DNA from: a virus
Taxonomy: Duplodnaviria; Caudoviricetes
IMG/VR virus record: IMGVR_UViG_3300030329_001103
Location: 1,855-65,854 of that record
DNA: 64,000 nucleotides
Strand: one strand, 5' to 3'
This document shows positions 22,301 to 49,321 of the stretch, piece by piece. Numbering within the stretch: the stretch's first letter is position 1; every line of letters starts with the position of its first letter. The translations under genes were made by a program, and so were the position numbers. The notes beneath the pieces were generated by a model, which had not been told where the DNA came from, searched no databases, and saw only the letters and a program-made list of their open reading frames with translations.

Positions 22301-24464
22301 GGCAGGTATGTACTTTGTTAATGATCTATGGGTTGTACCTAATCCAGTTAAGATAGCTGAAAACAATCCAGTAATCCGAGAACACTTAGTACTCGATCCT
22401 GTTCAATTGACTGAAGGTATGAGAAGAGGTGTCGGTAATAAGATCTTTGAACAACAATTAGTTCAAGATATGTTCGGAGTAAAGGGAGACTTCCCGCTTA
22501 TCCTCGACTTATTTGAGAAGGTATTTGAAGATGGTGTACAACTCCTGAATGCTGACGGTACGGTCATTGATAGAGCTGGCTCAGATACAATAGCTAAAAG
22601 TATTGAAGAGCTAAGAGGCAAACACGACTTTGTTCAAGGGCTGCAAGAAACTCCAACTACTAGTAGTAGAGTTGAAGAGTTTATATATAATATTGCTCCC
22701 TCATTAACTAAGATAGCTTTTGCTGTAAACATGCCTATTGCTTCTTATACCTTCGAAGGTTTAATGTCATCCTTTATTGAATTAGTAGGTAAAAGAAACT
22801 TTACAGGACTTATAAGAGGAATCTTATCTCCTGCTTGGTGGGCAACCCAAAGTAAAGCACAGAAAGCTTCTAAGCTTAGGGATATTATTCGATATACTCA
22901 AGCGTTTAATAGAGCGTGGATTCCTGAATGGGATCGACCAGCGACTCAACCCAATCCTGGAGCACTCGAAGGATTTATCCAAGGATGGGGAGAACAGATG
23001 ATGCGACCGGCTCAGTGGATGCACGAAGCAATTGCTGCCACTAGAAGTGAAGACTATAGAAATCATCTTAGAGGTTTACTAGAAAATGGTAATAATTCTA
23101 AGCTAGCTCGACTAGTAACTGCTATTGAGAATGCACAAAGATCAGGCGCAGTAATTGATTACCGAACTCAACAAATGGTTGAAGGAGCAACAGCTGAATT
23201 AGAAACTCCAGATACTTTAGACGAGCTAATGAAAAGCAGAGAAGTCAATATACCAGAAGGTATGAGAGGTATAGTTAGATCTCTGTTTAACAGCGGAATG
23301 CTTGTAAGAGAGAACTTTACTCTATTGCAAAAAATGATTGAAGATTCGAGAAAACATTTCCGTAGTCAAAATATTGATACCTTCTCGCCAGCAGAAATGC
23401 TAAGCCATGCTTCTGCTCTATATGACCTACGTAATTCTACTGGTTCTAGTAAGGGTGACTCACAGCTTGATAAATTTAAGAATCGTTTGTTAATTATCCA
23501 AGCTCTTTCCAGTGCGGAACAAGATTACATCCAAGAAGTTATGGTATCCCCTAACGCCTTTGATGTGACTACAAGACGAGGCATAGGTCTTGGTGGCTTC
23601 TTATACGAGATCTTTAGACGATTCCCTGTGCTATTCATATGTCAGCATATCTTAAGAAAAGCTAAACACAACTCGCTTGCTAGATTAGGTCTGATGGTCG
23701 TTGGTATGCTCATATTAGATACTATATATATGATAGCACTTAGAGCAGCTATGGGTATGCCTCTTGAAGATCTATTAGAAGAATTTGAAAAAAATCCTGC
23801 ATCATTCCTAGGTAAACTAGCAGCTCGCTGGCCAATCTGGGGACGCTATGGACAGATAATAGCTGAAGTCATAAGCCAAATATCAGGCAATATCTCATCT
23901 TCACCGGGATCAATGATTCCTGCAGGTGCTTTAGCTACTACATTAAACCAAGCATTGAAAGCACTTAAGAGTGGTATCATCGCTCCCGCTAGTGGAGAAG
24001 ATGTAAACTGGCAGGATATAGTGAACTCTACACGATTGATACCGTTGGTTGGTGATACCTTCCTAAGACTAATCTTCTATCAGACACTAGGACAAGGTAT
24101 AGAGCGTAAGAAGATGGGAGGGGGCACAAGGTCATCTCGAGAGGCAGAACCTAATACAGAGCACGTAGGGGCTACTGTAGGCTCTCTCATGTATAACTGG
24201 GAAGCTATTACAGAAGCACTGCTTGAGGAAGTAGCTGTAGAAGAACCATTAGGGTTGCCTTATTACCCTGGAAACCCTTCGATGAACATGTTCCAACCTG
24301 ATCCAACTCCGGTTAAACAGCCGTTAGATTCCCAGCCTCCGTTACCACCTCAGACTGACATGCCGATATCGCAACCAGAACCGGTAGCTCCTATAATGGA
24401 CAGGCTTGAGGAAGCAGCGGGTGCAGCAGGAGGTACTGAACTAGCAGATCGACTAGGGGGTTGA
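7380..24464 (+). CDS. Giant 5,694-aa polyvalent internal virion protein with putative virion RNA polymerase, PD-(D/E)xK nuclease, DEDD exonuclease and zincin domains
   Basis: Uninterrupted 17-kb ORF with AAGGAG RBS. Motifs: GTTDIL..EIFDIKT..KQLSLYA; HDDRKSS..MMM / DDLY / RDFFKIPALRTMYTGG; LDIET..YNGVSFD..YTKED; AHELGH..EEFMA. Only one Cys found. Confidence 0.8.
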   Translation: MSREWAIKPIPLSFGQKAFNEYTGEQIQKRENVLSNFPLYAKDRKDIQYGTPFKPEDSQQWAWGMMNVHTAVWENMANSYPSGYIADNIASHKQRASVMQPITGYQNRKGYEMFDDSMMAFKPEAQKLIDGYAEGTAWNMLRLGNDYGRNPIAFNTGTDRREALGGTLTNETPEDLFLDEPPPGWNIKEALEQLSEINPVAWDTYKLVMGSEEKIHEIAEGSKTPGEVLYKLNNYVQSAAIMNSLDKNFEQMSWGEEMWALYGRGLIVNGIINDPDMPASLTVSLGLAPFTWGGSLLLGLGAKLLKASVSSIKWGKRLSRLAKIAGGTGAVVSHLAKVRHVLPETVGPTVMKKMFKNYDKWKGADEFWSWRQFSVNRLGDATEGSITGGFAEYSTQRYDKHYGLRDDIDMKGVLKESLVEAALSPIINPAVGGVHRAILGGPLYVANKTMIEYIPETFSKGLTENFKSLMQNFDPDQTAKMWTTTKKFVQLGEDISELTMDDVDPAALQDSSHMLNLVLEGVMNHTNVDRVEVMNTLSTVVGKIKAGVNTGDVAKDSLLGAMIESNKENFGGEGKLSLDQMAFLLADELSRKKGKNGQPNPYGINNTKFLLELEEKLAHFKNLSAFAKENGLSIEEAKKKIEDEGLFIEVYPGLKEEIVEQIGVDEYERLKETDEGKLKLSGIALDIFKEKEKQFQETVKAKRERVAEAQVEAEDAVAENENIYLDDEDIPEDVSLKELEQLKEWVENPGDATVTQIDVNINTYLEQGLINEVQANMLKKMTLEVSQGKREIQTLTAFENQIYEALPADAYVVTLIEWPSKNWLNAAYKLSKAGVPFHNRLAELRGEAQATTSERKTHEIISVDEHDNGADIKFRNDAGDILNLSIEVFDHAVMIDGVPEYGKMIEGHFSAEDQTKIDTMSGDPFTVLNTVGEQLLLYAKKFDVDFVRIMSQQGETETRKPGGPSARARIYQRMLNRIVGEVKPISSDEATGTFVYRYSDILEAQKRTAGEGESKDKEEVPEIIIPASRQEAIAKIEDYIKDFRENFSLSEDGSEYIDNAGNIFERVSSVIEEQIGEIDPEAAALKMGTLIDDVARDYITNPDEATKPEGWSDEAWEQFKDVWDPIIQQWKDEGRWYTAEETTFGSLDAGGSGRSIAGTTDILTITEDGKVEIFDIKTSKYDTSEWDTEFGDRLSKSERYSKQLSLYATLVEEALGLEVAEITAIPLELNYNETDLIPISITKNNNVGLRLLNNIRITNGGLVSRGTDARKSPLSTPAPEETEEDAPTDFQKWQDRLDTSITKTQKTIHDLTEENKSEDIPEEKKEKNIDIIKKLKESLKRLDSARRKYKKEIAEWEALDEITPRIKDLHKKMLTFEKELKDAERILYNNPEYIYIVELHKALGSGQTHIQGLIRHTWDKEAADNLTRNQWIKQRREALIAEQETEETKKTDDEIETQIKEEAKEFEREVTLDAIIEEGFRPSLALMLDNIPEESLINVDDEGNPVSNKNIITQLQSLLAIEKDPDPSEFSNMTKLKEAILSLPDVEVTKTELNKMNRGELNELYIKLKKKADRSGKVISRTVLLQAHQEADAKLTQMGLDIQGTEAFINLLEAKDKLEQASTEYNITKSALQDEATKTRGMALRSIGDWQELLAVQAVLKRYIDSSIALVENGEVQTARDIRDIAPAGSRLRKEINKIILEMENDEGPTNNDLDAAREKAKTLEDVSWEDAINGILHKLPWSFITDRAVSILDSDLETGAETKRKNWILNGLEQERTRISNLSPEQMWRTQVPRNLQYLAKTKLHQMSEQDWLTVEAADITGRDIELYDKKIFGAEAAAKELEALEIISNHLNDRRSGLNPDQPIRSAEIRKWAENTAYGEWAVSPSVLFKQAISKEHEIDLNKITDDELANLEVEITFDADLLVDVIRNLLEESLVYNSYFGRKIPSRLRKATVGETLKSLSLKRNKDGYFPAKEARRHIKDMYDAVLPILRERADEFGFVYEVNENTLWPSESSGPLEGLSPADRGKAEAKYENVARNAMIKRILKYLSKTGTRTLVDNIMEEVGYIKEKDVTNQQLAMILADKILLAIPSITEDNWTISSFGDGTVDWQPAKDAGEGLVDYFSMKSLVTKRHKVSIIQYDDGRFGIEVNGILDTDEHESTAILALTKGQGNMLALIPLYERLSIAENSRTRFRIEKITNIINAPEEVQAQYRKEWEEKIRNTKVEAALPEGAGVMIRIPDKRNPIYSGAIPTEDKLAAHFFPNLLLQTTEEEFLTREEILDAGMYYMLDLPNLSRAYIQDSVTYSAKAKKNRRLSAEVPTHVQITEEVITKDGIERKKVTGISMGSDFILPPHEILVNAIWENIGGSYQNVFDLAMESYEITRNHLIEKHGEEAFTKGKMWNRDVMHDDRKSSVWWEFMMMAGALNPKVQKTIDTIRQQLANKTYGGENFKQNLDDLYIESGIYVVGSIFDAPQHKDRSLSIPSFMSIFNNLQNIKDRTDWDRIYEAADTDQQKQMDVIRDFFKIPALRTMYTGGMKAFLSTFEGEKEEGTKWLQSASEVFGINIKDLRAELENLSKILYENSYIETGILMENALGMDEEIRSEVLKFMETKQDESELIKKSKDILQAVSRDPENINNIIGLNGILEVMEASVAHWVELAYPEGATPANMKKAKKRLVNDPLEKSKRYLTKLKAKGIAIPSGMKDEHWQFLHELWLPKEFKSWQHMDLFKMWNIMLSGAWQINAKNISQVAKTYGIMDYKLEHLMGLPEQNIYLRQRPQDTAQRAFDEYGILPNNKGIRFDRAEVDADKLAIYVEERKQSMNQAEFKKDPEYYFNQFILEYMEQDKDHRAALGAFDLVDSPMHKIYRDAKKEGATDKQAWDKVRAELDKMLWYEEMLTWSEKYPLPFEDYTIEDSNAEFYSHFMNSWNQSWEERAGTLPAELQQEKQARKEMNDKPWRKEFIEGRVKMGRSLVVDPKRPHINPYAVVEYDDAVASKYDHPLTVDSENSKGPISFIPKMNNYSFANRGMMGLELALRTRKLNERMDPIEQVLANTNETLSTKEGAEEVIKPYLEGRKPSIAAPESALGRISPWNLNTIPEPLPPIPQYIVEEALELDDTRLGQEVGRFYQRITEYARSIGMEDELDNPEAWPFLNYMLRTQNVIKRNLQFTKRGASKTLGETLAIRSRFKEDFLEISQLSRDLREETRDVMDLETPGKPLGIHKPPVDMTLGEFLGSKPTSMTDPTPLIDHTLLWDQLDFTVPEESVVDQATLIDEQGNEHPIESKTSQFLTNINFNKDFIKYAVSSLLTEAYGVEEIRKFKDGKYASLVEPGSENLDNYFDIIDQFSLEDLRELLYNIKNGAKESPVYLHMDLRLIRELGEASPEKRKEMADHLFVGIENAELATTNEKTGIRHKFKHREGGIYSGMHAWLAVPSRVKGDTARLRITPEGLIRMVMTLTNSDLLWRAQMSAISGRSLGVDVDFDGAPISTVATSRLVRENEGANNVRRIRKRSIQETTALDIIMGKTETGKPQLRTVTSGRSTIRSAAVRHVNYGDYHHPRHKGRLQNFVIDEVYYGIANGLVTQINTLGNGDLNTAVDKVQEYIHKARMGEAHEKNVIDILALTVLANSDGNNFHQIDVDTLTAFLYNEEIGNPDSTKVITAARNEAYELYRNLQSLISKDEHVWSGNDYDALAADFVYKLAAKEYQYPDNPKLNMTAEEMVDQMYEDFFKRVDQEAPLRIDATEVIVDVMQNLGMSQEDALKMPEVVNYQEWLADTNKTYQLDIETDHTNENIISIGIKEGSKETRYVGNSSEFLSQKQALAILKAIEKNQQDGYKVSAYNGVSFDWRILGKVAGDHNLAARIALRSIDPFENLRSFKSRNKGVGYHAWHGLEAVAERLAKKPWEKSMDGLEAYLYWLRGQGIEINKESVMKYNIDLDKIKNLKEHKGKGNSAVFKYYNDIEPSDATTKLKKYTKEDVDILNEVYHALNKKTNQQDRTSHIGEYSVTIDQMYPTWFLDARRDLEYKGLGEEKLFFAEWDSTIKEQILELSGNMRKSNFSNVIANGDIRKNKDLALAALHKAIGREEEAEINSVSEWIDSKVKHEFKDIATASAANDHLYKYEEIHRGQLRDIFDHINELVTTHEALTEHDAMLMRDLVLRIYHVNPFNILDLHIVNQINEEKGVPVSGAMKTEEGKFEIRIGKGFVDIQEIGGGRAPLIFAHELGHVGRLKWIESNRKEWRQYRDIMHSDGGKEFIKAMVQAFNEGRWDAKAEKEYERYTTDVEEFMAAMYGYYMLEGQLPAYTEYLDSTKGKKALPPGYHDAEDKSWSILRRIFDFVLNRLQRVANVFRVFRHQHPEAAEVSEKLIQRMLGWSADNTALIQYASDVPTGELMFMEPRFPQVEEKAPVYDDAFIIEAWQRMKTLEAKAATTTGLTKEENHEYGEIVRLINSDEMSTPDELNTTRWERVTVMSDIMDRDMLDPESKSMFGTDAAMSLPDLFYVLHTVNEETLTPATALERRVLASHILRTTKKEFGYQVNNSAGEAMRAAGKFLSKMGQKLGIADSEEAISQLMTDVLVGNTGANYTFNSLFTIPIMLTSLLESKVAGMSGNYTNIFGQRDISGSLRQLETWSSAIGAITNEIIIEVGGTIDKIAGKIVSEGNKNIMADISFKILQAVQGEMDTKDYLKTWELDIPELADTEVPAKALEIARLLHNQLTFFQAEGTALGMFSKFMHAIPMQLQNSIWTEGEVGKGYTTLRTEMRNEVQKRIEDPINSSLVEPTLVYAANFLPDLDQEGMADWFESIAINNPSQLLMGDLVATRALQYLKQIGTKDWVTRDQVTALTARIRAGEHKVVAAVRVATKSIMDGFGEKRIDWEFLKRQQDRSADYAGAYKGLKDRYSAILDSENYSTETALSVKRKLAQLSSHSLGLGLEKYYFKSRKGSSVLPMNSDTPIDLITSTMLSRAAAGMYFVNDLWVVPNPVKIAENNPVIREHLVLDPVQLTEGMRRGVGNKIFEQQLVQDMFGVKGDFPLILDLFEKVFEDGVQLLNADGTVIDRAGSDTIAKSIEELRGKHDFVQGLQETPTTSSRVEEFIYNIAPSLTKIAFAVNMPIASYTFEGLMSSFIELVGKRNFTGLIRGILSPAWWATQSKAQKASKLRDIIRYTQAFNRAWIPEWDRPATQPNPGALEGFIQGWGEQMMRPAQWMHEAIAATRSEDYRNHLRGLLENGNNSKLARLVTAIENAQRSGAVIDYRTQQMVEGATAELETPDTLDELMKSREVNIPEGMRGIVRSLFNSGMLVRENFTLLQKMIEDSRKHFRSQNIDTFSPAEMLSHASALYDLRNSTGSSKGDSQLDKFKNRLLIIQALSSAEQDYIQEVMVSPNAFDVTTRRGIGLGGFLYEIFRRFPVLFICQHILRKAKHNSLARLGLMVVGMLILDTIYMIALRAAMGMPLEDLLEEFEKNPASFLGKLAARWPIWGRYGQIIAEVISQISGNISSSPGSMIPAGALATTLNQALKALKSGIIAPASGEDVNWQDIVNSTRLIPLVGDTFLRLIFYQTLGQGIERKKMGGGTRSSREAEPNTEHVGATVGSLMYNWEAITEALLEEVAVEEPLGLPYYPGNPSMNMFQPDPTPVKQPLDSQPPLPPQTDMPISQPEPVAPIMDRLEEAAGAAGGTELADRLGG

Positions 24465-24762: not shown

Positions 24763-24769
24763 CACACTC

Positions 24770-24803
24770 GATTTCTTAGGTCGAAAGGCCTAAGAGATTT
24801 TTT
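24770..24803 (+). terminator. Rho-independent terminator (GAAA tetraloop), copy 1
   Basis: GATTTCTTAGGTC-GAAA-GGCCTAAGAGATT followed by T-run; near-duplicate at 28872. Confidence 0.7.
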
Positions 24804-24807
24804 AAGA

Positions 24808-24853
24808 ATGATGGTATCCTCCATCAACCCTGCGCTTGGGTAAAGCGTGTTAC
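24808..24853 (+). repeat. 46-bp direct repeat, copy 2 (candidate promoter/leader)
   Basis: ATGATGGTATCCTCCATCAACCCTGCGCTTGGGTAAAGCGTGTTAC, identical to 25183-25228; each copy lies just upstream of a small ORF. Confidence 0.9.
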
Positions 24854-24866
24854 AGAGAGCAAACCA

Positions 24867-25088
24867 ATGAGATATTGCTTAGTGCAATGCATCATGGGTC
24901 TGTCGATCGCTGCGTTTATGATCCTTGGACGGATATGCATGGATGCTGCAAGAGCTGTTGTCTCCGACGATGCAATCATGGTACTTTGGATAGTACTTGG
25001 TTTCATGTGTTGGGGTATAGCAGTCGCTTGTGGAATCTATTGTATTATGCTGGCCATAGATGAATGGAACGCACGAATGGGCAGATAA
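24867..25088 (+). CDS. Small protein with two predicted transmembrane helices
   Basis: 73 aa, two hydrophobic stretches; fills the cassette between repeat and hairpin element. Confidence 0.55.
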   Translation: MRYCLVQCIMGLSIAAFMILGRICMDAARAVVSDDAIMVLWIVLGFMCWGIAVACGIYCIMLAIDEWNARMGR

Positions 25089-25102
25089 CCTCGATGTACA
25101 AC

Positions 25103-25182
25103 GGAGCTTCGGCTCCCCTCCCCTGTCTGCAGCACAGGGGACGAATACAGATACATTCCTTCGGGCGTGTGTCTGTATTCGT
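25103..25182 (+). ncRNA. Three-hairpin structured RNA element, copy A
   Basis: GGAGC-UUCG-GCUCC; UCCCCUGU-CUGCAGC-ACAGGGGA; long stem with cUUCGg loop and G-U pairs; covaries with the copy at 25536. Confidence 0.65.
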
Positions 25183-25228
25183 ATGATGGTATCCTCCATC
25201 AACCCTGCGCTTGGGTAAAGCGTGTTAC
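25183..25228 (+). repeat. 46-bp direct repeat, copy 3
   Basis: Identical to 24808-24853. Confidence 0.9.
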
Positions 25229-25247
25229 TAGATGATAGGATTTTCTG

Positions 25248-25523
25248 ATGAAGAAGATTTTTATTGTTGATGTATGTGGTGAAGCTCCTGTGCCTTACAC
25301 TGACATGATGGACGCTTTCAATGCGGCTATTAACGCCGTACTGAAAGAAGGTTATCATGCACATGTGTACCTTGACGGAAGACAAGTTCTTTATGTCAAG
25401 AACAGAGACAACCATGTTGAAGTATGCCAAACTATCTTCATCTGCAAGGATGATGTAAAGAATGGTCGCTACAACTGTCGCTACGACACTGGTGATAAGC
25501 GCCACGTACATCTGGTAGTATAA
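25248..25523 (+). CDS. Hypothetical early protein
   Basis: 91-aa ORF with AGGA RBS right after repeat copy 3. Confidence 0.65.
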   Translation: MKKIFIVDVCGEAPVPYTDMMDAFNAAINAVLKEGYHAHVYLDGRQVLYVKNRDNHVEVCQTIFICKDDVKNGRYNCRYDTGDKRHVHLVV

Positions 25524-25535
25524 CTACCATCCAAT

Positions 25536-25613
25536 GGCGTTAGCGCCCCGCCCTCACCTGCAGCGTGAGGGCCTAATACAGATACATTCCTTCGGGCGTG
25601 TGTCTGTATTAGG
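25536..25613 (+). ncRNA. Three-hairpin structured RNA element, copy B
   Basis: GGCG-UUAG-CGCC; GCCCUCAC-CUGCAGC-GUGAGGGC; same 36-nt core hairpin as copy A with compensatory outer pairs. Confidence 0.65.
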
Positions 25614-26130: not shown

Positions 26131-28161
26131 ATGAAAAACCTAACAGGTTTAAAATCCAGCTTGAAAAAGCTGGTGGCAGATTCCGTTTTTCACGGGCCTA
26201 TTCCTCGACTTGCGAGGTGGGTGTGGGACGAAAGATCGCTTGAATCGATCGTTGATCGTTCGGTGAATCCCACTAAATGTGCCTTAGATACCTTAGCCGA
26301 AGGCAAGGAATTGTCGGAGGTTTACCAAGGATTCTTGGATTATCTTGAAGAAGAAAATCCTGGATTCTTGGCAGAAGTAAAATCACTTGACCAAGTTAAA
26401 CTGGTTGAAGTGATTCAAGATGCAGTGGCACAAGCCCACCGTGATGAATGCCAGGAAGATAGCTTCCACTACCTACCTACCAGAGATGGTAGAATCTTCT
26501 TCACTACCGCAGAAATGCGAGAAATGAAAATAGAAGAAGGTAGTATGCATGACATCGAAGTCTCACGTCACTGGGACAGCGACCATGTTGTTTCAGAAAA
26601 CATGCGTGAAAGGGCTCGCCGTGACTTTGAAGCACCTAGTGTGCTTCTCTTGGATGATATTGAACTGCTTGTTCAAGCTAACGAAGCTATCGAAGGCGAC
26701 AACGCGCTGTTCCATCCAGATTTCTACGACAATGTGAACAACATTGGTAGCGCAGACTTTCATGTACTACCCAACATGATTACTCAAGTTGGTCGTGAAA
26801 TGTATAACACGAAGAGTAAAGGATTTATCCAAGCTTCAAAGCATCTTCGTTACTGTTACGGTACCCCTGAGGACATTCCGTCCACTCCTGAGAACACGAA
26901 ATTTATCTTTGATAGTTTCGATAAACTTGGGTTGAGTCCTACGAAAGTAGATCATATCCTTAGTAATCCTTCGGGTTATGTTAGAAGTTTAGTGGATGGT
27001 AAGAAAACCCTTCGTAATTTGAACTACGCACACATTGCTAATGATTTGCTAACCAAAGGCGCAACTAATCGTTGTGTAACGTTGGACGGTAATTCAATGG
27101 CGATCGTTACTAAAGCAGTAGTGTGGGGCCAAGACGTTATTCAGAAACTCTTTGGTCGTAGTGTTGCAAGTTTGGTTGATGCAAATCATCCTGACTATGT
27201 TCACCCTCGAGCCGGCGTTTATAACGGCATGATGGTACGAGGTAATAGGGTTGACGGATTTGGTTCCTTCCCAGAACTAGCAAGAGTTCCATTCGATTCG
27301 TTTGATGCAGATGGAGGGTCAACGTACTTTGTACAGACTGTCTATGGTGCTCAAGCTAAGCGTAATGCTTTAACAATGCTAGGTCTAAAAAGTAGGATCC
27401 TACCTCAAGACTTAGAAGACGCAACCGATGTTGACGAACTTGATCTACTAATGAGTATTATCGGAGACGAAACAACAAACTCCGCTTCTATTCCAGATTG
27501 GGCTCTGCAACTATGGATTAACTGGTGTGCTAGCAAAGGCGCTGATCCCGATACTTCAAATGATCTTATCCTACAAGATTTTGCAGATAGTATCATGGGT
27601 GAGTGGGTAGATACTGTTCATGCGAACCTACCAATTCTTGGTGTTTCTAGTAAATTGTGTAACTACATTTATACTAAAACCAAGAAAGAAACTGGTGCAC
27701 CACCTCGTGTTCAATTCACTGACGATTACGGTTTTAGTATCCGAGACGTAGTGAGACATCCAAGCAAGTACCGCAGACTTAACATAACAGTCGGCAAAGA
27801 CTTGTATACCTTGGGTGTACGCGGTAAGGTCCGAAGGTTTCATTTCAAAGAACATGGTACTATGCTAGATCCTTTAGCGGAACATGGTACAGAAGTTATT
27901 TGGATGTGGGATTGGAAAGACCGCTTCCGTGAAGCTATTAGTCATATTACCAAACATCACGGCAACATTGAACTTCGTTCTTTGTTTGACGGTGGCATGG
28001 TTCCTGCATCACTAGCTTTAATAGCTAGTCAAACAGCAACCCAAGCTATGAATGGTTTACCAGATAAAATTAGTTCGTTACCAGAACAGTACGGACTACC
28101 TCATCCAGGTAAAGGTGGTAATCTATTGGACGATAACGCAATAATTGTGAGTATGGAATAA
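26131..28161 (+). CDS. Highly diverged T7/N4-family single-subunit RNA polymerase-like protein
   Basis: Motifs in correct order: TQVGR (DxxGR), VTLDGNS (A, D319), VQTVYG (B, Y405, lacking R/K), RRLNI specificity-loop-like, WMWD..26 aa..LRSLFDG (C, D620). Confidence 0.65.
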   Translation: MKNLTGLKSSLKKLVADSVFHGPIPRLARWVWDERSLESIVDRSVNPTKCALDTLAEGKELSEVYQGFLDYLEEENPGFLAEVKSLDQVKLVEVIQDAVAQAHRDECQEDSFHYLPTRDGRIFFTTAEMREMKIEEGSMHDIEVSRHWDSDHVVSENMRERARRDFEAPSVLLLDDIELLVQANEAIEGDNALFHPDFYDNVNNIGSADFHVLPNMITQVGREMYNTKSKGFIQASKHLRYCYGTPEDIPSTPENTKFIFDSFDKLGLSPTKVDHILSNPSGYVRSLVDGKKTLRNLNYAHIANDLLTKGATNRCVTLDGNSMAIVTKAVVWGQDVIQKLFGRSVASLVDANHPDYVHPRAGVYNGMMVRGNRVDGFGSFPELARVPFDSFDADGGSTYFVQTVYGAQAKRNALTMLGLKSRILPQDLEDATDVDELDLLMSIIGDETTNSASIPDWALQLWINWCASKGADPDTSNDLILQDFADSIMGEWVDTVHANLPILGVSSKLCNYIYTKTKKETGAPPRVQFTDDYGFSIRDVVRHPSKYRRLNITVGKDLYTLGVRGKVRRFHFKEHGTMLDPLAEHGTEVIWMWDWKDRFREAISHITKHHGNIELRSLFDGGMVPASLALIASQTATQAMNGLPDKISSLPEQYGLPHPGKGGNLLDDNAIIVSME

Positions 28162-28855: not shown

Positions 28856-28871
28856 TACCGGAGGAACACGC

Positions 28872-28905
28872 GATTCCTTAGGTCGAAAGACCTAAGGAAT
28901 CTTTT
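28872..28905 (+). terminator. Rho-independent terminator (GAAA tetraloop), copy 2
   Basis: Perfect 13-bp stem GATTCCTTAGGTC/GACCTAAGGAATC followed by a T-rich run. Confidence 0.8.
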
Positions 28906-29041
28906 ATTATTATTTTTTTACTACTCTTATGAGGGAGAGTGGACTGCCTACAGGTCAGAAGGTATGGGGTCGGTATTCTGACCTCTGAAGAGTCTGATGG
29001 TGTCTGAAGTCGGAACTATTTTTGTAAGAAATAAAAAAGTA

Positions 29042-29070
29042 TGCCCTATAGTTGGGTCTAAAAGATAAGA
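29042..29070 (+). promoter_or_regulatory. Candidate phage-RNAP promoter, copy 1
   Basis: TGCCCTATAGTTGGGTCTAAAAGATAAGA matches 47192-47220 at 26/29. Confidence 0.55.
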
Positions 29071-29255
29071 ACATAAGGTGTCTGTCTATTTGTTATATAA
29101 TAATCTAATATAAGAAGGAGTCTGAAGCAATGGGCTTCGCCTACTCAGAAGGTTCAGCGGACCGGCTTCGCCTAACCCGCTGACCCCAATCGTTCCCGAA
29201 CATGTCGGGAATGCGTACACCACTTGTGTGCGCGGTCTTAACTGGAGACAGTCCA

Positions 29256-29504
29256 ATGGCTAAATCCTTAGCTGAACTTGGATTCGGAACCGGTGGCAAG
29301 AACTACGGTTCACCCTCTGACCTCGATGCTGTGACATTGACGATGAGAGCGAACAACGTACCTTCTTTGTTCAATGACGACCTCAGTCTGAAGACCCATG
29401 TGGCTGCAAGCCCTGGGTGGACAGCTTGGGCGAACCATTGTCTGGCTTGTGCAAGGCTTATCGCTGAGCGCAAGACTGCTACCGCAGCCAAAGCCAAGGC
29501 GTGA
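29256..29504 (+). CDS. Hypothetical protein (82 aa)
   Basis: ATG 29256 with GGAG RBS, in frame with track ORF 29202..29504. Confidence 0.6.
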   Translation: MAKSLAELGFGTGGKNYGSPSDLDAVTLTMRANNVPSLFNDDLSLKTHVAASPGWTAWANHCLACARLIAERKTATAAKAKA

Positions 29505-30200
29505 GTTAGTGCTCGCATTCAACGGCATCCCGAAGTGGGTGCCTTTATATGCGGACATTAGCCGACCCCCTCGCATATGTTGGGGTCTGCTTTTTTCCTC
29601 AGGTTAGGAAAGGGTGAGCGTATACATGCAGCCCTGGGTGAGTGTGACTGTGATTGACAGCCCGAAGTGCGGTGGAAGAAACTCACAGGAGATGCGGCAA
29701 CTGTATCTATAAACCGAGAAGAGTTGCGAACCTAACCTAAGTGATAGTGGTAGGTGTGCAATGCTATTCGCAAGCAACCTACTGCTATCACTAACGATTA
29801 ACCCGGAGTCTAAATCCAAGACTCAGTAAACTGGATACCAGAGCACAACTGGTACATCAAAGCCTACGGTATAACGCTGGGATACAGGTATGTAAAGCGA
29901 CGGCTTCGATTCGTCTGTAATACCTGCCAGCTTCCGCCGTAGTAGACAAACTATTTATAGGCACGACGGTGCCGTCCGTGGCTGAATAAGCTCTGTGATA
30001 AGGAGCTAAGGCACACACTAGACTGTGGTGGTCTGACTGATGCACATAATGTGTGAGGTCATCCTCGTGACTGAGGATATGGTGGTAGGTGGTTGTAATA
30101 CAAGAGTATTATCCCTCTGCCTTGCAGGTATACCTGAATCCTGCCGGACACTAATCTACTATACAGTCAAGCGTATGGCTGTAGTTACACTGGTCCTAGT
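29505..30200 (+). ncRNA. Densely structured non-coding region, candidate long ncRNA or processed leader
   Basis: No credible + ORF for about 700 nt; many stems with G-U pairs, e.g. 29601-29608/29731-29738 and the 16-bp 29740-29755/29777-29792. Confidence 0.45.
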
Positions 30201-30215
30201 AAGAGGAATTTAATA

Positions 30216-30413: not shown

Positions 30414-30775
30414 ATAAACATAAGAAATCAGTACCCTTTGAGGGTCCTATTAACCTGAAGCAATGGGCTAAAGAGCATCCAGCTTCGACCTTTACACATA
30501 AAGGTGTAGAGCATAAGATAACCGGGAAAAGGTATTGCTGTCAGGAAGACGACAATCTTAACAGCATTCAGAAGCTTCATCAGCGGAAGATACTTAATGT
30601 ATACGAGCCGATTGAAGCTTACAATGAGAAGTGGGAGCATCACTTTATTAAAAGCGGTAAAGACTTTGGTAAGTATGTGAGTGCTAACCCCATTCCTGGG
30701 ACTAAAGTACGGAATGACTTACCTCCCTTGTATCTACAATGGAAGGAAGCTTTCAGGAATGATCGTAAGAAATGA
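30410..30775 (+). CDS. Hypothetical early protein
   Basis: ATGA-coupled ORF in a compact early cluster. Confidence 0.6.
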   Translation: MNKHKKSVPFEGPINLKQWAKEHPASTFTHKGVEHKITGKRYCCQEDDNLNSIQKLHQRKILNVYEPIEAYNEKWEHHFIKSGKDFGKYVSANPIPGTKVRNDLPPLYLQWKEAFRNDRKK

Positions 30776-33970: not shown

Positions 33971-34285
33971 ATGGATGCACTATTAGAAGAAGAAGTCGCT
34001 GATATTATCGTTGATAAGCTAGAAGTAGAGTATTTAGATCAGGGTTTAGGGTACTATGAGTACGGTGATGGAAATTATTATCATGAAAATTGGAATAATT
34101 GCTTGACACCACAGAAAATTATGGTACAATATCCCTTAGATACAGACAGTGCGATCTATACTAGGCTATATGGCTACTATGAAGATGATAATGGTGAACT
34201 TGAATGGCTTGCTGAATTAGATAATGTTATTTGGAATAAAGAATTAAAGTTATATGAAGCAACCTATGAGGTATATGAACCGTGA
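33971..34285 (+). CDS. Highly acidic hypothetical protein
   Basis: AAGGAG RBS; E/D/Y-rich 104 aa. Confidence 0.6.
   Translation: MDALLEEEVADIIVDKLEVEYLDQGLGYYEYGDGNYYHENWNNCLTPQKIMVQYPLDTDSAIYTRLYGYYEDDNGELEWLAELDNVIWNKELKLYEATYEVYEP
34103..34130 (+). promoter_or_regulatory. Sigma70-type promoter
   Basis: TTGACA-16 nt-TACAAT with extended -10 TG. Confidence 0.5.
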
Positions 34286-34671: not shown

Positions 34672-35658
34672 ATGAGTCACGAAATGTATGAACATGATCA
34701 CGCACTTTATGTAGGTGAGCCAGCGTGGCATGGACTGGGAACAGTCGTAGAGAATGCGCCTACAACTATGGATGCTATGCGTCTGGCAAGGATGGACTTT
34801 GATGTAGTAAAATCAAACCCTATCATTGCTCAGTTTAGAGATCCTAATGAGTACTATCAGAATAATACTAAAGCTAGTAAGTTCTATGCTACAGTACGCT
34901 GCGATACTAATGAAGTATTAGGTGTAGTAAGCGAGAACTATAAGGTAGTACAGAATGAAGAACTGTTTAAGATAGCAGACTCACTACCTGAAGCTAAGGT
35001 TGAGACAGCGGGTACTCTATTCAATGGAGCACAGTCTTATATCTTAATGAAGGATGATGAGTGGGCTGTCAATGGTAACGATGAGATGCATGAGTATCTC
35101 TGTCTTATGAACAGTCATGATGGTACGCTAAGTCTATCAGCACTACCTACCTCAATCAGAGTTGTCTGTAACAACACATTGAGCTGGGCAATCAGTGAAG
35201 GTAAACAACGTATGATTAGACTGAAGCACACAGGCGATATCGATAGTAAGATTCACAGCCTGACTGAAGCATTAGCTGAATGGCATCATGCTAAGGATAG
35301 GTTTAGATCTTCTGTTCGTACCCTAGCTAATAGACGCTGGGATAGAAATCAAATCCAAACTTTCTGGATGGAAATGTATCAAATGTTCGAAGGTGATGTG
35401 CCTCGAGAATCAGATACGGATAAGAATCATAGGCTTCGCAAGAAAGCTTTGACTACATTCCATACACTATCTGAAACATTCGATAAAGAAGTTCAACAGT
35501 TTGGGCAAGACAATGCATGGATTGCTGCTAACGCAGTAACCAACTGGCTGCAACACAAGAAACGCAGAACTACCGAAGCTACTGTTGCCAATAAACTTAT
35601 TGGTGATGCTAGCCGAGACTCTGCTAAAGTGATGCGTCATGCATTGCAATTAGTCTAA
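34672..35658 (+). CDS. DUF932 / TIGR03299-type phage-plasmid protein
   Basis: PAWHGLG, Y.VVQN, ETAG.L..G, NSHDG and RVVCNNT motifs. Confidence 0.85.
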   Translation: MSHEMYEHDHALYVGEPAWHGLGTVVENAPTTMDAMRLARMDFDVVKSNPIIAQFRDPNEYYQNNTKASKFYATVRCDTNEVLGVVSENYKVVQNEELFKIADSLPEAKVETAGTLFNGAQSYILMKDDEWAVNGNDEMHEYLCLMNSHDGTLSLSALPTSIRVVCNNTLSWAISEGKQRMIRLKHTGDIDSKIHSLTEALAEWHHAKDRFRSSVRTLANRRWDRNQIQTFWMEMYQMFEGDVPRESDTDKNHRLRKKALTTFHTLSETFDKEVQQFGQDNAWIAANAVTNWLQHKKRRTTEATVANKLIGDASRDSAKVMRHALQLV

Positions 35659-35845
35659 GCCCACGCCTCTGTTGATACCCAGGATACGCTTGTTTAAAGC
35701 GTTAGGTACAGGATACAGAGTGGCAAAGTAGGACGAAGACTGACTCAGTATGATACTATTGGTGAGTATAAACAGTATCTAGACAGTTAGTGGTAGTCGA
35801 TAAACATGGCAAGTACAGCCAACCACTCTTAGTAATGTGCCGAGT

Positions 35846-36148
35846 GATGGGCGTAACCCATCGACAATCTAAGACTCTGCCGAGTACAAAGCCTTTGGTG
35901 ATGCATGGTCAGCAAATAAGACTGCCTGTAAGGCGTGAAGAGGATGTAAGATTCCTTACGGTTTAAGACACGGTGGCTTGTGTCCAGAGTCAACAATCTA
36001 ATGGGGCAGGGCAGTAGTCCTCCTTAAGCCTAGTCCTCGGAGACTACCGCATATGCAGGGACTAGGTTGCCCCAACAATTTAATGGGGTGGGCAGCTGGA
36101 GCTAGCAGTTAAATAACTATAAACAGCTAACCCACCCCGACAATTATA
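35846..36148 (+). ncRNA. Array of stem-closed structured RNA units separated by ACAAT linkers
   Basis: Closing stems 35846/35862, 35873/35991, 36003/36073 and 36085/36138, each followed by (G/A)ACAAT. Confidence 0.5.
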
Positions 36149-36157
36149 GGAGATTTT

Positions 36158-36451
36158 ATGCGACAAGATCATGATCAAAAATTCGGAGGCACTTTTAATG
36201 CTCACAAGAACTGGAAGAAGTTACGAGAGAAGCATAAGAAAAGTGATGAGCATAAAGCTAGGACTGGTAAGAAGAATTGGAAGCCTGAAGTGTATGAACC
36301 TAGAGATGGTGGTGCAGGTAAAGGTGATGCTGAAAGAGAAAGAACTGTACCCGATGAAATCTATGGATACAATTATGACTTAGCCTTTGGTAAAATTACT
36401 AAGGAAGAACATAAAAAATTAGTTGAAAAATTCTGGGAGGATAACTCTTGA
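36158..36451 (+). CDS. Hypothetical basic protein
   Basis: AGGAG RBS; GAGKGD motif; overlaps the RNAP start. Confidence 0.65.
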   Translation: MRQDHDQKFGGTFNAHKNWKKLREKHKKSDEHKARTGKKNWKPEVYEPRDGGAGKGDAERERTVPDEIYGYNYDLAFGKITKEEHKKLVEKFWEDNS

Positions 36452-38889
36452 TTTGGGATACATTAAATAAAGAAGAACAGTTAGAGAGAAACCGTGCTCA
36501 AATATTATATGAACAAGAAATATTAGAATACGGTAGGCAAAAATATTGGGACGATTATGATAGAGCTCCCGATGAAGGTTTACCTGAACAAGAACTAATA
36601 GACTCTTCTGTTAATGCATTAAGAGATGAGTATCAAACATGGATTGATAAAGTATGCGCATCGCCCAAGTCTCCTAATTGGATATACCCTTTACTAGAAC
36701 TAGGTGCACAGAAGATGGCTGATATAACTATACGTGCAGTCATACGCTCATGGTTTTCTAGTAATTTCTGGGGACAAAAGTTTACTGAACAAGAACATGT
36801 ACCGCCCTTAGCACAAACTGTTGCTACATTAATAGCTCAAGATGCTTGTGATGTTATAGGCTTTCAAAGATCTAAAGAGAATCATAAAGATGAATGGCTT
36901 AAGCAATCTAAGTTTATTAAAAACTGGACACCTAAAAGATGTAAAGCATTTACAAAAAAGGTACAAGAAAATATAAAGCTAACAGTAAAACAAAAGCATG
37001 ACTTCGGTCATCACATGTTACGTATAGCTGCTTCTTCTAATATAATATTACTAGAAGGTAGATCTATTAAACGAGGTAAGTCTCTTAGAAGTTATTTGTT
37101 TGTAGAGTTTCATCCTGATGTATTACGAGAGTTACATGAACGACATGACTTATTAAAGGAAAGTAAATTAGTTTATAGACCAATGTTATGTCCGCCTGTT
37201 GAACATTCTTTAATTGAATCGGGAGGTTATGTACATACTACATTAAGAAAACCTATTGTTCAGAAATATAAATCTAATTTCTTTGGCGATAAACCTATAG
37301 AACAAAAGTTTTCTGAACCTTCTCAGTTAGTTATTGATGGGTTAAATGGTATGATGCAGACTGAGTGGAGCGTTAACGAAAAGATTTATGACGTTATGAA
37401 AACTCTATTTGAAAATAATACAGGGCTAGCTAACTTACCTGTGTTTGAGTTCGAATCTTTTATGTATAACGCACCTTACCCTAAAGGTGGGTCTAAAGAA
37501 GAAAAGGCAATATGGTGCCAACAAAGAGAACAGTCTTGGAGTGACTGGTACAAATCGGAACAAGCTAGAGGTAGAATGCTAGTTCGTTTAGCGTTGGCTA
37601 AGGAGATGATAGGCAAAGGATTTTTCTATCATGTATACACGCTAGATTTCAGAGGCAGGGCTTATACTATATGTGAGTTACTTTCGCCGCAGTCGTCAGA
37701 CTTTGATAAGGGTCTGATTCAATTTGCTAATGGCGTAGAATTAACTGATGAGGGTAGGTACTGGCAGAAAATTAATCTAGCAAACCAATTCGATCAAGAC
37801 CACTTATCATTCGATGATCGAATTAAATGGGTTGATAAAAACTGGGAGATGATAGAGAGGATAGCTAATGATCCTTACGAAAATAAAGAATGGGTTGATG
37901 ATTCTATCAAAAAGAATAAGTCCTTTCAGAGGCTGGCTGCTTGCTTTGATATTACTAGAGATGATAATCTTACTTTTATCCCGATACAGGTAGACGGCAA
38001 ATGTAATGGCAACCAACACTGGTCTGCAATTATGGGAGATCCTACGATAGCAGACTTAACTAGTGTAACTCCGAACGATGAACCTCAGGATTTATATCAG
38101 TACGTTGCTGATATAACTACACAATTCCTTAATGAGCATAAGAATAATAACACATGGTTTGATACTTTCTTATCTCATTGGGATGGGCGTATAGATAGGA
38201 AGGTAACTAAACGTTCTACTATGTGTGAACCATACGGTTTAACTTTCTATGGTATTCAAAAATATATTAAGACTGAAAGACATCTTGATTGGATACCTAA
38301 TGAACGGAGAGGTGGAGCTATTGTAGAATTATCTAGAGCTATTAAAGCATCTTTAGATAGGGCATTAGCTGAGCCTAATAAAGGTAAGCTTTACCTAAAA
38401 GAATTAGTTACTGTAGCTAATGATTTGAATAAGCACGTTGAATGGGTAACGCCAAGTGGATTTAAAGTAGTGCATCATTATAATAAGATTACTACACGAA
38501 GATCTTTAGCTAAACTATTTAACAATAAGGAACTAACATTCTTTGTTAGAACCGACGATGTAGATACTAGGTCTGCATTGCAAGCGATTGCACCAAACTT
38601 TATACATAGTTTGGATGCAGCGCATATGTTTCTGTGTATTTATTCCTTACTTTGGAATGGTATAAAAGATTTATGTATGATACATGATTCTTTTGGATGC
38701 CATGCAAACTATGTAGGGTTAATGAATACAATTATAAGACGAGAGTTCTTAGTAATGCATAAGGATAATCAATTAGAATTGTTTAAGAAAAGTTTGGAAA
38801 ACTTACTAGGTACTAAATTACCAAATGGTCCTGAAAGAGGAGACTTAGATCTGGAACAAGTTCTAAAATCTTTGTACTTCTTTGCATAG
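36448..38889 (+). CDS. T7-type DNA-dependent RNA polymerase (gp1-like)
   Basis: DFRGRAY, VDGKCNGNQHW, QDLY, RKVTKRSTM..PYG, PNFIHSLDA, IHDSFG; TTG start with GGAGGA RBS. Confidence 0.97.
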   Translation: MIWDTLNKEEQLERNRAQILYEQEILEYGRQKYWDDYDRAPDEGLPEQELIDSSVNALRDEYQTWIDKVCASPKSPNWIYPLLELGAQKMADITIRAVIRSWFSSNFWGQKFTEQEHVPPLAQTVATLIAQDACDVIGFQRSKENHKDEWLKQSKFIKNWTPKRCKAFTKKVQENIKLTVKQKHDFGHHMLRIAASSNIILLEGRSIKRGKSLRSYLFVEFHPDVLRELHERHDLLKESKLVYRPMLCPPVEHSLIESGGYVHTTLRKPIVQKYKSNFFGDKPIEQKFSEPSQLVIDGLNGMMQTEWSVNEKIYDVMKTLFENNTGLANLPVFEFESFMYNAPYPKGGSKEEKAIWCQQREQSWSDWYKSEQARGRMLVRLALAKEMIGKGFFYHVYTLDFRGRAYTICELLSPQSSDFDKGLIQFANGVELTDEGRYWQKINLANQFDQDHLSFDDRIKWVDKNWEMIERIANDPYENKEWVDDSIKKNKSFQRLAACFDITRDDNLTFIPIQVDGKCNGNQHWSAIMGDPTIADLTSVTPNDEPQDLYQYVADITTQFLNEHKNNNTWFDTFLSHWDGRIDRKVTKRSTMCEPYGLTFYGIQKYIKTERHLDWIPNERRGGAIVELSRAIKASLDRALAEPNKGKLYLKELVTVANDLNKHVEWVTPSGFKVVHHYNKITTRRSLAKLFNNKELTFFVRTDDVDTRSALQAIAPNFIHSLDAAHMFLCIYSLLWNGIKDLCMIHDSFGCHANYVGLMNTIIRREFLVMHKDNQLELFKKSLENLLGTKLPNGPERGDLDLEQVLKSLYFFA

Positions 38890-46482: not shown

Positions 46483-47212
46483 AACTGCGTGTCTCGATGG
46501 AGATATACTTGTATACAAAGCAGCATTCCTAGCGGAGATAGAGGGAGTGGATGTTTTAGGAGATAAAATAGAGCATGATGTTAAGAAGTGGAGACCAAAA
46601 GGTACTAAAGATTTTGTGGTCGCTCTATCCTGTGGCAAGTCAGATAATTTCCGCAAGAAAATCTGGCCCCTATACAAAAGCAATAGAGATAATATGCATA
46701 GACCTGAGTATCTATCTGATGCTTATGAGTATATGGAGAATAATTTCGAGGTGGTTCGAGGAAGTAATGTGGAAGCAGACGATATACTGGGACTATATGC
46801 ATCCTCACACACGGGTATAGCCGTGACAATTGACAAGGATTTACGGGGAGTAGATGGTTGGCACTATAATCCAGACAAAGAAAAGAAACCTGTATGTATT
46901 ACAGAAGAGGAAGCGGAAGATTTCTTTTTCAAGCAATGGATGACAGGAGATTCTACTGATGGAATCCCTGGATTGTGGAGAGTTGGACCGAAAAAAGCAG
47001 AAAAGTTCCTAGATGAATGGGAAAGAGAAGAGTGGATCGACAATATTCTAGAAATGTACGAGACTGATAAGTATATTCCTAGAGAATTGGCAGGCGTAGC
47101 CCCAGAATCCATAGGATTAGTTATGGCACGGTGTGTAAAGATATTAGACACAAGGACTTATGACTATGATGAAGATAAAATAACAATGTGGTGCCCTAAA
47201 GTTGGGTCATAA
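46469..47212 (+). CDS. 5'-3' exonuclease (gp6-like)
   Basis: DGDI, NFRK, YK.NR, EADD, DKD, GDSTDGIPG..VGPK.A. Confidence 0.93.
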   Translation: MTKPKTACLDGDILVYKAAFLAEIEGVDVLGDKIEHDVKKWRPKGTKDFVVALSCGKSDNFRKKIWPLYKSNRDNMHRPEYLSDAYEYMENNFEVVRGSNVEADDILGLYASSHTGIAVTIDKDLRGVDGWHYNPDKEKKPVCITEEEAEDFFFKQWMTGDSTDGIPGLWRVGPKKAEKFLDEWEREEWIDNILEMYETDKYIPRELAGVAPESIGLVMARCVKILDTRTYDYDEDKITMWCPKVGS

Positions 47213-47220
47213 AGATAAGA
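47192..47220 (+). promoter_or_regulatory. Candidate phage-RNAP promoter, copy 2
   Basis: TGCCCTAAAGTTGGGTCATAAAGATAAGA immediately before AGGAGATATACATG. Confidence 0.55.
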
Positions 47221-47231
47221 AGGAGATATAC

Positions 47232-49120: not shown

Positions 49121-49321
49121 ATGCAACATAGAAAAGATACAGTTTATAGAAAGATGCGAATGAACGCAACAATCTTACCAGCTGAATTAGTAATGATCGT
49201 AAAAGATTTAGATCAAAGACTTTTGGAATTAGAAGGAAAAGATTCTGATGGAGTTGAAAAACCTAGCCCTAGTAGACAGAAGTCTAGTAGAGTTCCTAAA
49301 GAAAAAGTATCCTCCGATTGA
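49121..49321 (+). CDS. Hypothetical protein
   Basis: GGAG RBS; 66 aa. Confidence 0.5.
   Translation: MQHRKDTVYRKMRMNATILPAELVMIVKDLDQRLLELEGKDSDGVEKPSPSRQKSSRVPKEKVSSD

Follow-up and report, generated by a model that had tools for sequence, protein, structure and literature searches.

Small structured RNA units arrayed with a conserved spacer between them upstream of the RNA polymerase gene in uncultured marine phages

Introduction

What does an uncultured marine phage keep in half a kilobase of DNA with no credible open reading frame, placed just ahead of its RNA polymerase (RNAP) gene? The locus lies in a 65.9-kb virus record. The window, that is the whole stretch of 64,000 nt that was analysed and to which all positions refer, covers nearly all of this record and has every gene on the + strand. 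Between the stop codon of a DUF932 gene (35658) and the ATG of a 97-amino acid ORF (36158) there are 499 nt that contain no credible ORF. An earlier note, made from the sequence alone, had described this gap as a tandem array of different stem-closed RNA units joined by a repeated ACAAT linker upstream of the RNAP operon. The placement is correct, since the gap sits between the DUF932 gene and the small ORF with the RNAP gene next, and the description as a tandem array of different structured units is now supported by syntenic arrays in relatives and by covariation.

Results

Genome and lineage

The window carries T7-type modules for RNAP, primase-helicase, DNA polymerase, portal, capsid-assembly protein, tube, nozzle, fibre and terminase, as well as a 5694-amino acid ORF upstream. 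This build matches that of AG-10.1, a subgroup of the marine Autographiviridae which the consulted part of its defining article presents as large-genome phages with a giant gene ahead of that for RNAP, with no cultured member and with an uncertain host (PMC12361551); the terms 'non-coding', 'intergenic' and 'tmRNA' are absent from the main text of that article. Cultured phages yielded no DNA similar to positions 35600-36200, and the RNAP is at most 27.5% identical to that of any cultured phage. The 97-amino acid ORF matched neither Pfam nor PHROG families, and family scans of the DUF932 gene, this ORF and a 676-amino acid ORF provided no function. A literature search by topic, covering titles, abstract openings and passages, found no publication on such an array, and the spacer strings returned nothing relevant among the matches listed.

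Layout of the array

Examination of the gap (35659-36157) revealed one hairpin (A) followed by three stem-closed units (B, C and D), linked through spacers of the form C-N-ACAAU-YWWA (Table 1). Re-reading of the sequence located each of the four stem and linker combinations listed in the earlier note at its place. Hairpin A consists of GATGGG (35846-35851), a CGTAA loop and CCCATC (35857-35862). The fourth linker abuts the GGAG that precedes the ATG of the small ORF, an arrangement also found in the relatives L050, L048, L055, L146 and L152.

Table 1. Features of the array locus and of the neighbouring genes in the window.
Feature	Position	Strand	Basis
DUF932 gene	34672..35658	+	Pfam PF06067, E 1.6e-41
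5' leader with small hairpin ACGCTT/AAGCGT at 35686-35702	35659..35704	+	fold z -1.09, weak
Unit X, composite structured module	35705..35840	+	fold z -2.47
Conserved CGAGT motif and hairpin A	35841..35862	+	covariation, 19 distinct versions
Linker 1, GACAATCTAA	35863..35872	+	sequence reading, motif count
Unit B, 119 nt, multi-stem	35873..35991	+	homologues in L050, L054, L152, L073
Linker 2, AACAATCTAA(T)	35992..36002	+	sequence reading; bridged by one RNA-library contig
Unit C, 71-nt stem-closed H-type pseudoknot	36003..36073	+	alignment with L162, L073
Linker 3, AACAATTTAA(T)	36074..36084	+	sequence reading, motif count
Unit D, 54-nt long hairpin	36085..36138	+	fold z -4.28; homologues in relatives
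Linker 4, GACAATTATA (36139-36148), fused to Shine-Dalgarno GGAG of next gene	36139..36157	+	sequence reading
97-amino acid lysine-rich ORF	36158..36451	+	conserved 3' neighbour; homologues after arrays in relatives
T7-type single-subunit RNAP gene	36448..38889	+	Pfam PF00940, E 3.8e-79

Linker statistics and folding energies

Evidence from the window alone is moderate. The exact motif RACAATYTAA occurs three times in 64 kb for 1.42 expected, a count that is not significant by itself because 17 of 100 shuffles reached three; all three copies lie within 221 nt and nowhere else in the window. The related form CRACAATYWWA was found six times for 0.88 expected (0/100 shuffles), with four of the six copies inside the array. 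When one mismatch was permitted the linker motif was not enriched in the window (31 copies for 32.5 expected). The idea that the spacer is a promoter of the phage polymerase was rejected, as the exact motif is confined to the array in the window and is scattered at about the control level in relatives. Units from the arrays of other phages had no copies elsewhere in the window.

Fold z-scores against shuffled sequences were -3.51 for hairpin A, -1.74 for unit B and -2.58 for unit C, the last value referring to the nested fold only, without its pseudoknot (see Table 1 for the 5' leader and units X and D). The whole region scored -3.14 on the + strand and -4.09 on the - strand, and folding energy cannot tell the strand because both strands fold about equally well. 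The linkers of the window have a predicted unpaired probability of 0.80, compared to 0.40 in the rest of the array; over 36 linkers from 15 arrays these values were 0.72 and 0.41, a difference partly explained by composition. The spacer, whose consensus is N-ACAAU-CUAA, is kept between non-homologous units. A helix of at least 6 bp closes 29 of 53 distinct inter-linker units, compared to 10% of mismatched unit ends. By the same simple test the other 24 units had no such helix, and the linker pattern used for this count was loose, so that false sites are certainly included.

Syntenic arrays in related phages

Searches with the RNAP protein brought up only relatives at 54-64% identity, in which the array is absent and DUF932 abuts the RNAP operon wherever the upstream flank was read. 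Array-bearing relatives were recovered by DNA patterns (the linker and its following G run; hairpin A) and by alignment of DUF932 genes. The linker and G-run pattern identified viral contigs of two groups that share this gene order and whose arrays are full of the same linker, while hairpin A with its conserved upstream motif was present in 29 of 46 loci. After removal of duplicates, 22 distinct arrays, including that of the window, were found at the same locus in related uncultured marine phages (AG-10.1). Conservation in related phages had been named beforehand in the earlier note as a check, and both linkers and stems are kept in these arrays. The DUF932 gene lies 5' of the array at all array loci whose upstream flank was read or aligned. 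These observations are best explained by an array family held at one fixed locus (DUF932 gene, array, small ORF, RNAP gene) in a subclade of AG-10.1. On comparative grounds, namely the syntenic arrays and the covariation described below, which are the decisive support, the array is confirmed as something other than a chance feature.

Segments common to several arrays are 94-100% identical, whereas the DUF932 genes set against them are 58-81% identical; adjacent DUF932 genes are 72-88% identical among array-bearing phages and 57-59% in comparisons with L073, a relative discussed below. Unit content also changes between close relatives: the flank of L050 is 96% identical to that of the window, yet L050 lacks unit C, carries other units and has a longer unit B, and L048 and L055 have two common units in swapped order. 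By sequence comparison, the units are shown to be independent cassettes, constrained more than the flanking gene, yet gained, lost and reordered. The one bacterial locus matching the hairpin A pattern, in a Bacteroidota metagenome-assembled genome (L180), was taken as chance, consisting of an ordinary hairpin and a T run with no spacer.

Structure of the units

Hairpin A, with its 6-bp stem and CGUAA loop, is the first linker-bearing element at every locus where it was found. Over 19 distinct versions, 114 of 114 cells are paired and three of the six pairs show compensatory changes, compared to 17-50% pairing in slid controls. The exact fold of unit X is uncertain because CCACTCT has two alternative partners; its halves occur separately in L050, L146, L152, L145, L150 and L165.

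Unit B is closed by a 7-bp stem (GACTCTG/CAGAGTC), whose 3' strand is directly adjoined by a 5-bp GACAC/GTGTC hairpin with an 8-nt loop that lacks a T-loop sequence. Inner helices are likewise stacked on the closing stem in units C and D. Long blocks of unit B are invariant even in L073, where the DUF932 gene is only about 58% identical, and one compensatory pair was seen. At one fixed site, hairpin inserts of variable length are found, 3 nt long in the window and longer, with several different lengths, in L054, L050/L152 and L073; a contig from an RNA library carries a 34-nt replacement at this site. The insert lengths differ by non-multiples of three and therefore maintain no coding frame. 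Inserts confined to one site are typical of a functional RNA with a variable arm.

The earlier note had suspected a pseudoknot in unit C. Three helices are predicted: P1 (36003-36009/36067-36073, GGGGCAG/TTGCCCC), S1 (36014-36023/36039-36047) and S2 (36029-36036/36059-36066), of which S1 and S2 cross. In an alignment of the window, L162 and L073, 93.8% of 81 cells are paired (92-93% for S1 and S2), and 11 pairs are changed on both sides (six in P1, three in S1 and two in S2). Slid partners gave at most two double-changed pairs, and 0/500 shuffles reached the observed values. Both crossing helices keep pairing through these changes, and the H-type pseudoknot therefore holds, with three sequences behind it. 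Loop 3, containing GCATATGC, is conserved. A search with the unit C pattern retrieved only L073 again.

Unit D combines an 8-bp closing stem, GGGGTGGG/CCCACCCC, with an AGCTG/CAGCT helix. In several phages the array ends with this unit, which has homologues in L050, L137, L152, L146 and L140/L175. The folds of units B and D rest mostly on energy because both units vary little. Hairpin A and the helices of unit C include G-U pairs, which would be A-C on the other strand, so the RNA is read on the + strand. From the covariation, the units are shown to be real RNA structures of that strand. The hexamer in the loop of unit D is palindromic throughout (GCTAGC, GCATGC, GTGCAC). Palindromic loops that would allow kissing dimers were rejected as a general rule: seven arrays contain 50 six-letter palindromes for 74 expected, below all 200 simulated sets.

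Relation to tRNAs and to known RNA families

The earlier note had likened the closing stems to tRNA acceptor stems while seeing no cloverleaf. A cloverleaf is indeed missing: ARAGORN called 0 tRNA genes in the window and still none at relaxed thresholds down to -ps80, only scattered low-score calls, mostly on the other strand, appeared at -ps60 and in the mitochondrial modes, and the region had no Rfam tRNA match up to E=10. A search with all 4227 families of Rfam 15, whose models presumably include ribozymes, riboswitches, ROOL, GOLLD and Y RNA, gave only four chance-level matches in the array region (E 2-8.5, far below the cut-offs). Neither the tmRNA (RF00023) nor the tRNA (RF00005) model matched the window, and no ribozyme family matched its units. 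Over the loci of 19 relatives the same search returned only tRNAs, one tmRNA-like unit and two weak antisense matches.

The likeness to tRNA stands in part, through these relatives. In L073, a 66.7-kb relative, homologues of units B and C are interleaved with genes for tRNA-Arg(UCU), tRNA-Leu(UAA) and tRNA-Met(CAU) at the same locus, after one extra ORF; two other stem-closed units are present as well, and there are no ACAAU spacers. The spacer is thus not needed for unit function, because L073 has units B and C without it. In other relatives, tRNAs of these kinds form a tight cluster elsewhere, with all three present in L001 and those for Leu and Arg in L070. The last unit of L054 reaches 51.8 bits against the Rfam tmRNA model (RF00023; cut-off 47), matching the tRNA-like domain only, at the two ends of the model. 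An acceptor stem of 7 bp, with G-U as its third pair, is accompanied in this 82-nt unit by a T arm and by a counterpart of the D-loop; message part and pseudoknots are missing, and no spacer separates the unit from its neighbour. Exact patterns drawn from this unit and from unit B found no bacterial counterparts. No unit of the window matches tRNA, tmRNA or another Rfam family, and the mimicry idea therefore rests on the relatives.

The four array genomes considered, the window and three near-complete records, have no tRNA gene, while each of seven examined relatives without this array has one to four; this split is suggestive and no more, because the 11 genomes are related and the counts are not independent. 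Taken with L073 and L054, these observations show the units to be evolutionarily tied to the phage tRNA island. In G008, tRNAs are widely spaced with ORFs between them, and no homologues of the window units were seen by eye.

Transcription

A scan of the + strand of the array detected nothing resembling a terminator and no promoter-like site scoring at least 9/12, and a strong promoter-like site is found upstream, at 34103-34130. One RNA-library contig (35913-36072) runs from unit B through linker 2 into unit C, which fits a polycistronic precursor. It ends one base short of the end of unit C, and a single contig end proves nothing. Metatranscriptome contigs from four runs of three studies cover 35355-35741 and stop in the first structured module, at 35712-35741. 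Because all these RNA-library data come as assembled contigs, they can reveal neither ends nor strand nor level, and DNA carry-over is possible. Since there is no internal terminator or promoter and a promoter-like site lies upstream, and given the bridging contig, the array is taken to be co-transcribed with the early genes. Metatranscriptome contig cover is absent over most of the array and over the RNAP gene, which proves nothing.

Discussion

Proposed role and rival explanations

We propose, at about even chances, that genes for small structured RNAs, descended from a phage tRNA island, are arrayed here within an operon and that the spacer between them serves as processing punctuation. The earlier note had likewise inferred a polycistronic precursor cut at the linkers, with tRNA-like decoys, antitoxin mimics, sponges or ribozymes as candidate products. 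The host polymerase would transcribe the array along with the early genes, and the conserved single-stranded spacer between closing stems would be the punctuation signal. Such a role fits because the spacer is predicted to be single-stranded and is kept between unrelated units, fused to the next ribosome-binding site and absent beside tRNA-type units, which bring their own processing signals. As a guess, the cutter may be a host endoribonuclease of the RNase E/G type, with its preference for AU-rich single strands flanked by stems; the commonest form of the spacer is only loosely AU-rich. Each unit would be freed as a stable RNA whose paired ends resist exonucleases, and the last cut would also define where the mRNA for the small ORF and RNAP begins. 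The freed RNAs, as look-alikes of the tRNA class, would probably act in trans on host translation or on RNA-handling proteins, and by analogy the tmRNA-like and tRNA-embedded relatives point to factors handling tRNA-class molecules as putative targets.

An extension of this proposal, which we regard as doubtful, is that the array is a swappable arsenal of RNA cassettes in which look-alikes of the tRNA class act against host factors as an RNA-only counter-defence, the spacer being both release signal and swap joint. The look-alikes would comprise the tmRNA tRNA-like domain, acceptor-stem minihelices and the pseudoknotted unit, which would sequester or misdirect host factors working on tRNA ends, such as ribosome-rescue proteins or the nucleases and transferases of tRNA-targeting defences. 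Co-infecting phages would exchange cassettes at the nine-letter motif, an integron-like logic applied to RNA genes.

The stems could instead be cis-acting parts of the early mRNA, stabilising the 3' end of the DUF932 message, blocking exonucleases and providing processing sites by which the amount of RNAP message is fixed, in the manner of the RNase III sites between the early genes of T7. We consider this unlikely, but it has the position of the array in its favour, since T7-like phages separate their early messages at this very point directly ahead of the RNAP gene, as well as the last linker abutting the ribosome-binding site and the deepest RNA-library contigs, which cover the 3' end of DUF932 and stop at 35712-35741 in the four runs from three studies. 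Simple stabilisers, however, need no covarying pseudoknot, no blocks kept invariant at 58% flank identity and no changing repertoire. Homologues of the units also lie inside a tRNA cluster, one relative has a tmRNA tRNA-like domain as a unit, and a consensus promoter is found after the array in L053 and L175, so that the array is not the leader of RNAP there. Very unlikely in our judgement is that the spacers are partial copies of the rrn antiterminator which recruit Nus factors and carry the host polymerase past Rho to the RNAP gene. Both spacer variants of the window, AACAATTT and GACAATCT, occur in the leader of E. coli rrsH at a distance of 12 nt (2 matches for 0.15 expected; 4/200 shuffles), at what we take to be the boxA/boxC antiterminator region. 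The order of hairpin A and spacer mirrors that of hairpin and boxA, and an untranslated stretch of 0.5-1 kb in front of an essential gene would have to be shielded from Rho. Against this, rrsH was chosen for a likeness known beforehand, so that the match is not independent, and the comparison covers the leader of E. coli. None of the four window spacers has the gctcttt that precedes AACAA in rrsH, its place being taken by a strand of a stem; of the full rrn-type boxA element only the AACAAT/GACAAT part is common to the window spacers and the rrsH leader, and the units of L073 have no spacers at all.

The array might also be a graveyard of decayed tRNA genes or repeats without function, or a DNA-level element such as origin iterons or a recombination hot spot. 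Array genomes indeed lack the tRNA trio kept by relatives, the spacers are short direct repeats, and unit content turns over rapidly. We give this slightly less credence than the antiterminator, as compensatory changes with G-U pairs indicate selection on RNA pairing of one strand, the units are conserved above the neighbouring protein gene, and the array is held at one locus in 22 distinct versions. Least probable of all appears to be that the spacers are individual weak promoter elements of the -10 type, or else sigma-dependent pause sites, the units being separate short transcripts started at the following G run. The core N-ACAAT resembles a -10 element when N is T, as in 30 of 81 loosely defined spacers, and the G with which units usually start lies about 5-6 nt past the ACAAT core. 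N is, however, G, C or A in the other 51 spacers, no -35 partner accompanies them and no + strand site in the array reaches 9/12, and one RNA-library contig crosses linker 2.

Comparison with known systems

Among its eight tRNAs, bacteriophage T4 encodes two further small RNAs. These, RNAC and RNAD, are stable RNAs from the phage tRNA cluster for which the consulted part of the source gives no known role (PMC3014915). Units B and C of L073, also located between tRNA genes, are like them on that account; compared by description, the present array differs in being a whole array without tRNAs, with a conserved spacer and with units exchanged between phages. ROOL and GOLLD are phage-encoded structured RNAs, without known function in the part of the preprint seen, that are often near tRNA islands, and tRNAs sometimes lie inside the GOLLD linker (bioRxiv 10.1101/2024.12.08.627333). 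As presented there, each is a single RNA of about 600-800 nt that forms cages, whereas the units considered here are several, independent and 17-136 nt long. Bacterial and phage Y RNAs (YrlA) are stem-closed, have a tRNA-like domain and are handled by tRNA enzymes, according to the consulted part of the source (PMC4201824). Y RNA genes are described there as adjoining that of Ro60, and Pfam found no Ro60/TROVE protein among the 42 ORFs of the window. Acceptor stem, T arm and D-loop analogue are common to tmRNA and the unit of L054, a likeness that belongs to the relative and not to the window.

Two further comparisons are with bacterial systems. Type III antitoxin arrays are tandem identical repeats in one precursor, encoded beside the toxin gene, and a dedicated nuclease cleaves the precursor at a short repeated site. 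A ToxI-like array was rejected for this locus: only the linkers and short words repeat directly in 35600-36200, the units being mutually unrelated, and the neighbours are the DUF932 gene, the 97-amino acid ORF and RNAP, with no ToxN/AbiQ family among the 42 ORFs scanned. Operons for rRNA are transcribed into one long polycistronic RNA that is not translated; the flanks of each product pair into a stem around it, and tRNAs are interspersed. A leader sequence of the AACAAU type is common to these operons and the array, but the products of the array are tiny and it lacks the complete antiterminator sequence. We file the units under the small RNAs of phage tRNA islands, with no Rfam model in common with RNAC/RNAD, ROOL/GOLLD or Y RNAs. 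As far as the consulted parts of these sources go, none of the nearest known systems is presented as an array that is reshuffled and punctuated by spacers.

Phage tRNA islands and the RNAs that adjoin them, such as RNAC and RNAD of T4, ROOL and GOLLD, have long been without known function. Should the units be processed decoys, abundant ocean phages would be using sets of RNA mimics that evolve by cassette exchange. The present lineage is a simpler system, with small units that can be tested singly and natural variants in which cassettes are present or absent, and it also offers a cassette made of the tmRNA tRNA-like domain and an intermediate genome in which the units lie among tRNAs.

tRNA-associated units and a possible second type of cassette border in related phages

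A mixed cluster in L073, a distant relative, contains three tRNA genes in alternation with units that are stem-closed but not tRNAs; of these four, two are homologues of units B and C of the window's array. An 82-nt unit in another relative, L054, resembles the tRNA-like domain of tmRNA, and the third pair of its acceptor stem is G-U. It is a candidate for an RNA with which the phage competes for ribosome-rescue factors. In L162 (90-330), a copy of the stem-closed pseudoknot unit C lies 5' of hairpin A and is enclosed by different flanking stems, TTTAGTAGGTAC ... ATCTACTAAT, a stem pair that is repeated twice and looks like a second type of cassette border.

Features in the window and in two related loci
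Feature	Location	Remarks
1556-aa ORF	window 2717-7387
5694-aa ORF	window 7380-24464
Repeated structured elements	window 24764-25610 and 28866-28906
676-aa ORF	window 26131-28161
30-nt repeat	window 29042-29071 and 47192-47221	two copies, 90% identical, ending GGGTC-TAAAA/ATAAA
manA RNA motif, full-length	window 29960-30154	Rfam RF01745, 78.8 bits (cut-off 55.2)
C-R-ACAAT-YWWA spacer matches	window 30550-30560 and 49167-49177	two, outside the array, within ORFs
tmRNA-like unit, 82 nt	L054 4395-4476	tmRNA match 51.8 bits, tRNA-like domain only
Mixed tRNA/non-tRNA cluster	L073 4005-4644

Promoter-like elements

Immediately 5' of hairpin A, the arrays of L048 and L051 carry a sequence ending in TATAGGGTCTAAAATAC, which resembles the 30-nt repeat of the window. 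This type of element may be a phage-polymerase promoter, in which case some arrays may have a phage promoter of their own. At the other end of the array, 3' of the last unit, L053 (about 1925-1990) and L175 (about 1455-1500) have a TG-extended promoter that fits TTGACA-N17-TATAAT perfectly, followed by a small membrane-like ORF, the lysine-rich ORF and the RNAP gene. Judging from these sites, the host probably uses canonical sigma-70 type promoters.

Loop palindromes

The loop hexamer of unit D, the long hairpin of the array, is a palindrome in the window (36101-36106) and in L152, L146 and L140, and is kept despite multiple changes (GCTAGC, GCATGC, GTGCAC). In unit C, each of the three copies has the palindrome GCATATGC in loop 3. 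The palindromic loops of both units may form loop-loop dimers. Overall palindrome enrichment was not found.

Other features of the window

The 5694-aa ORF slightly exceeds the range of 3274-5566 aa given for the AG-10.1 giant gene in section 18 of PMC12361551. A Pfam scan of the 1556-aa ORF returned no match, and the 676-aa ORF had zero Pfam or PHROG matches; the latter occupies the site of a second RNAP (about 650 aa) in some AG-10.1 phages. The manA RNA motif lies, together with terminator-like hairpins, in a GC-rich, largely non-coding stretch of about 1.3 kb (28856-30215). The repeated structured elements comprise an exact 46-nt repeat (24808/25183), a 68-nt repeat with 82% identity (25112/25543) and a hairpin-plus-T-run element in two copies (24764/28866), and may represent a second non-coding RNA region.
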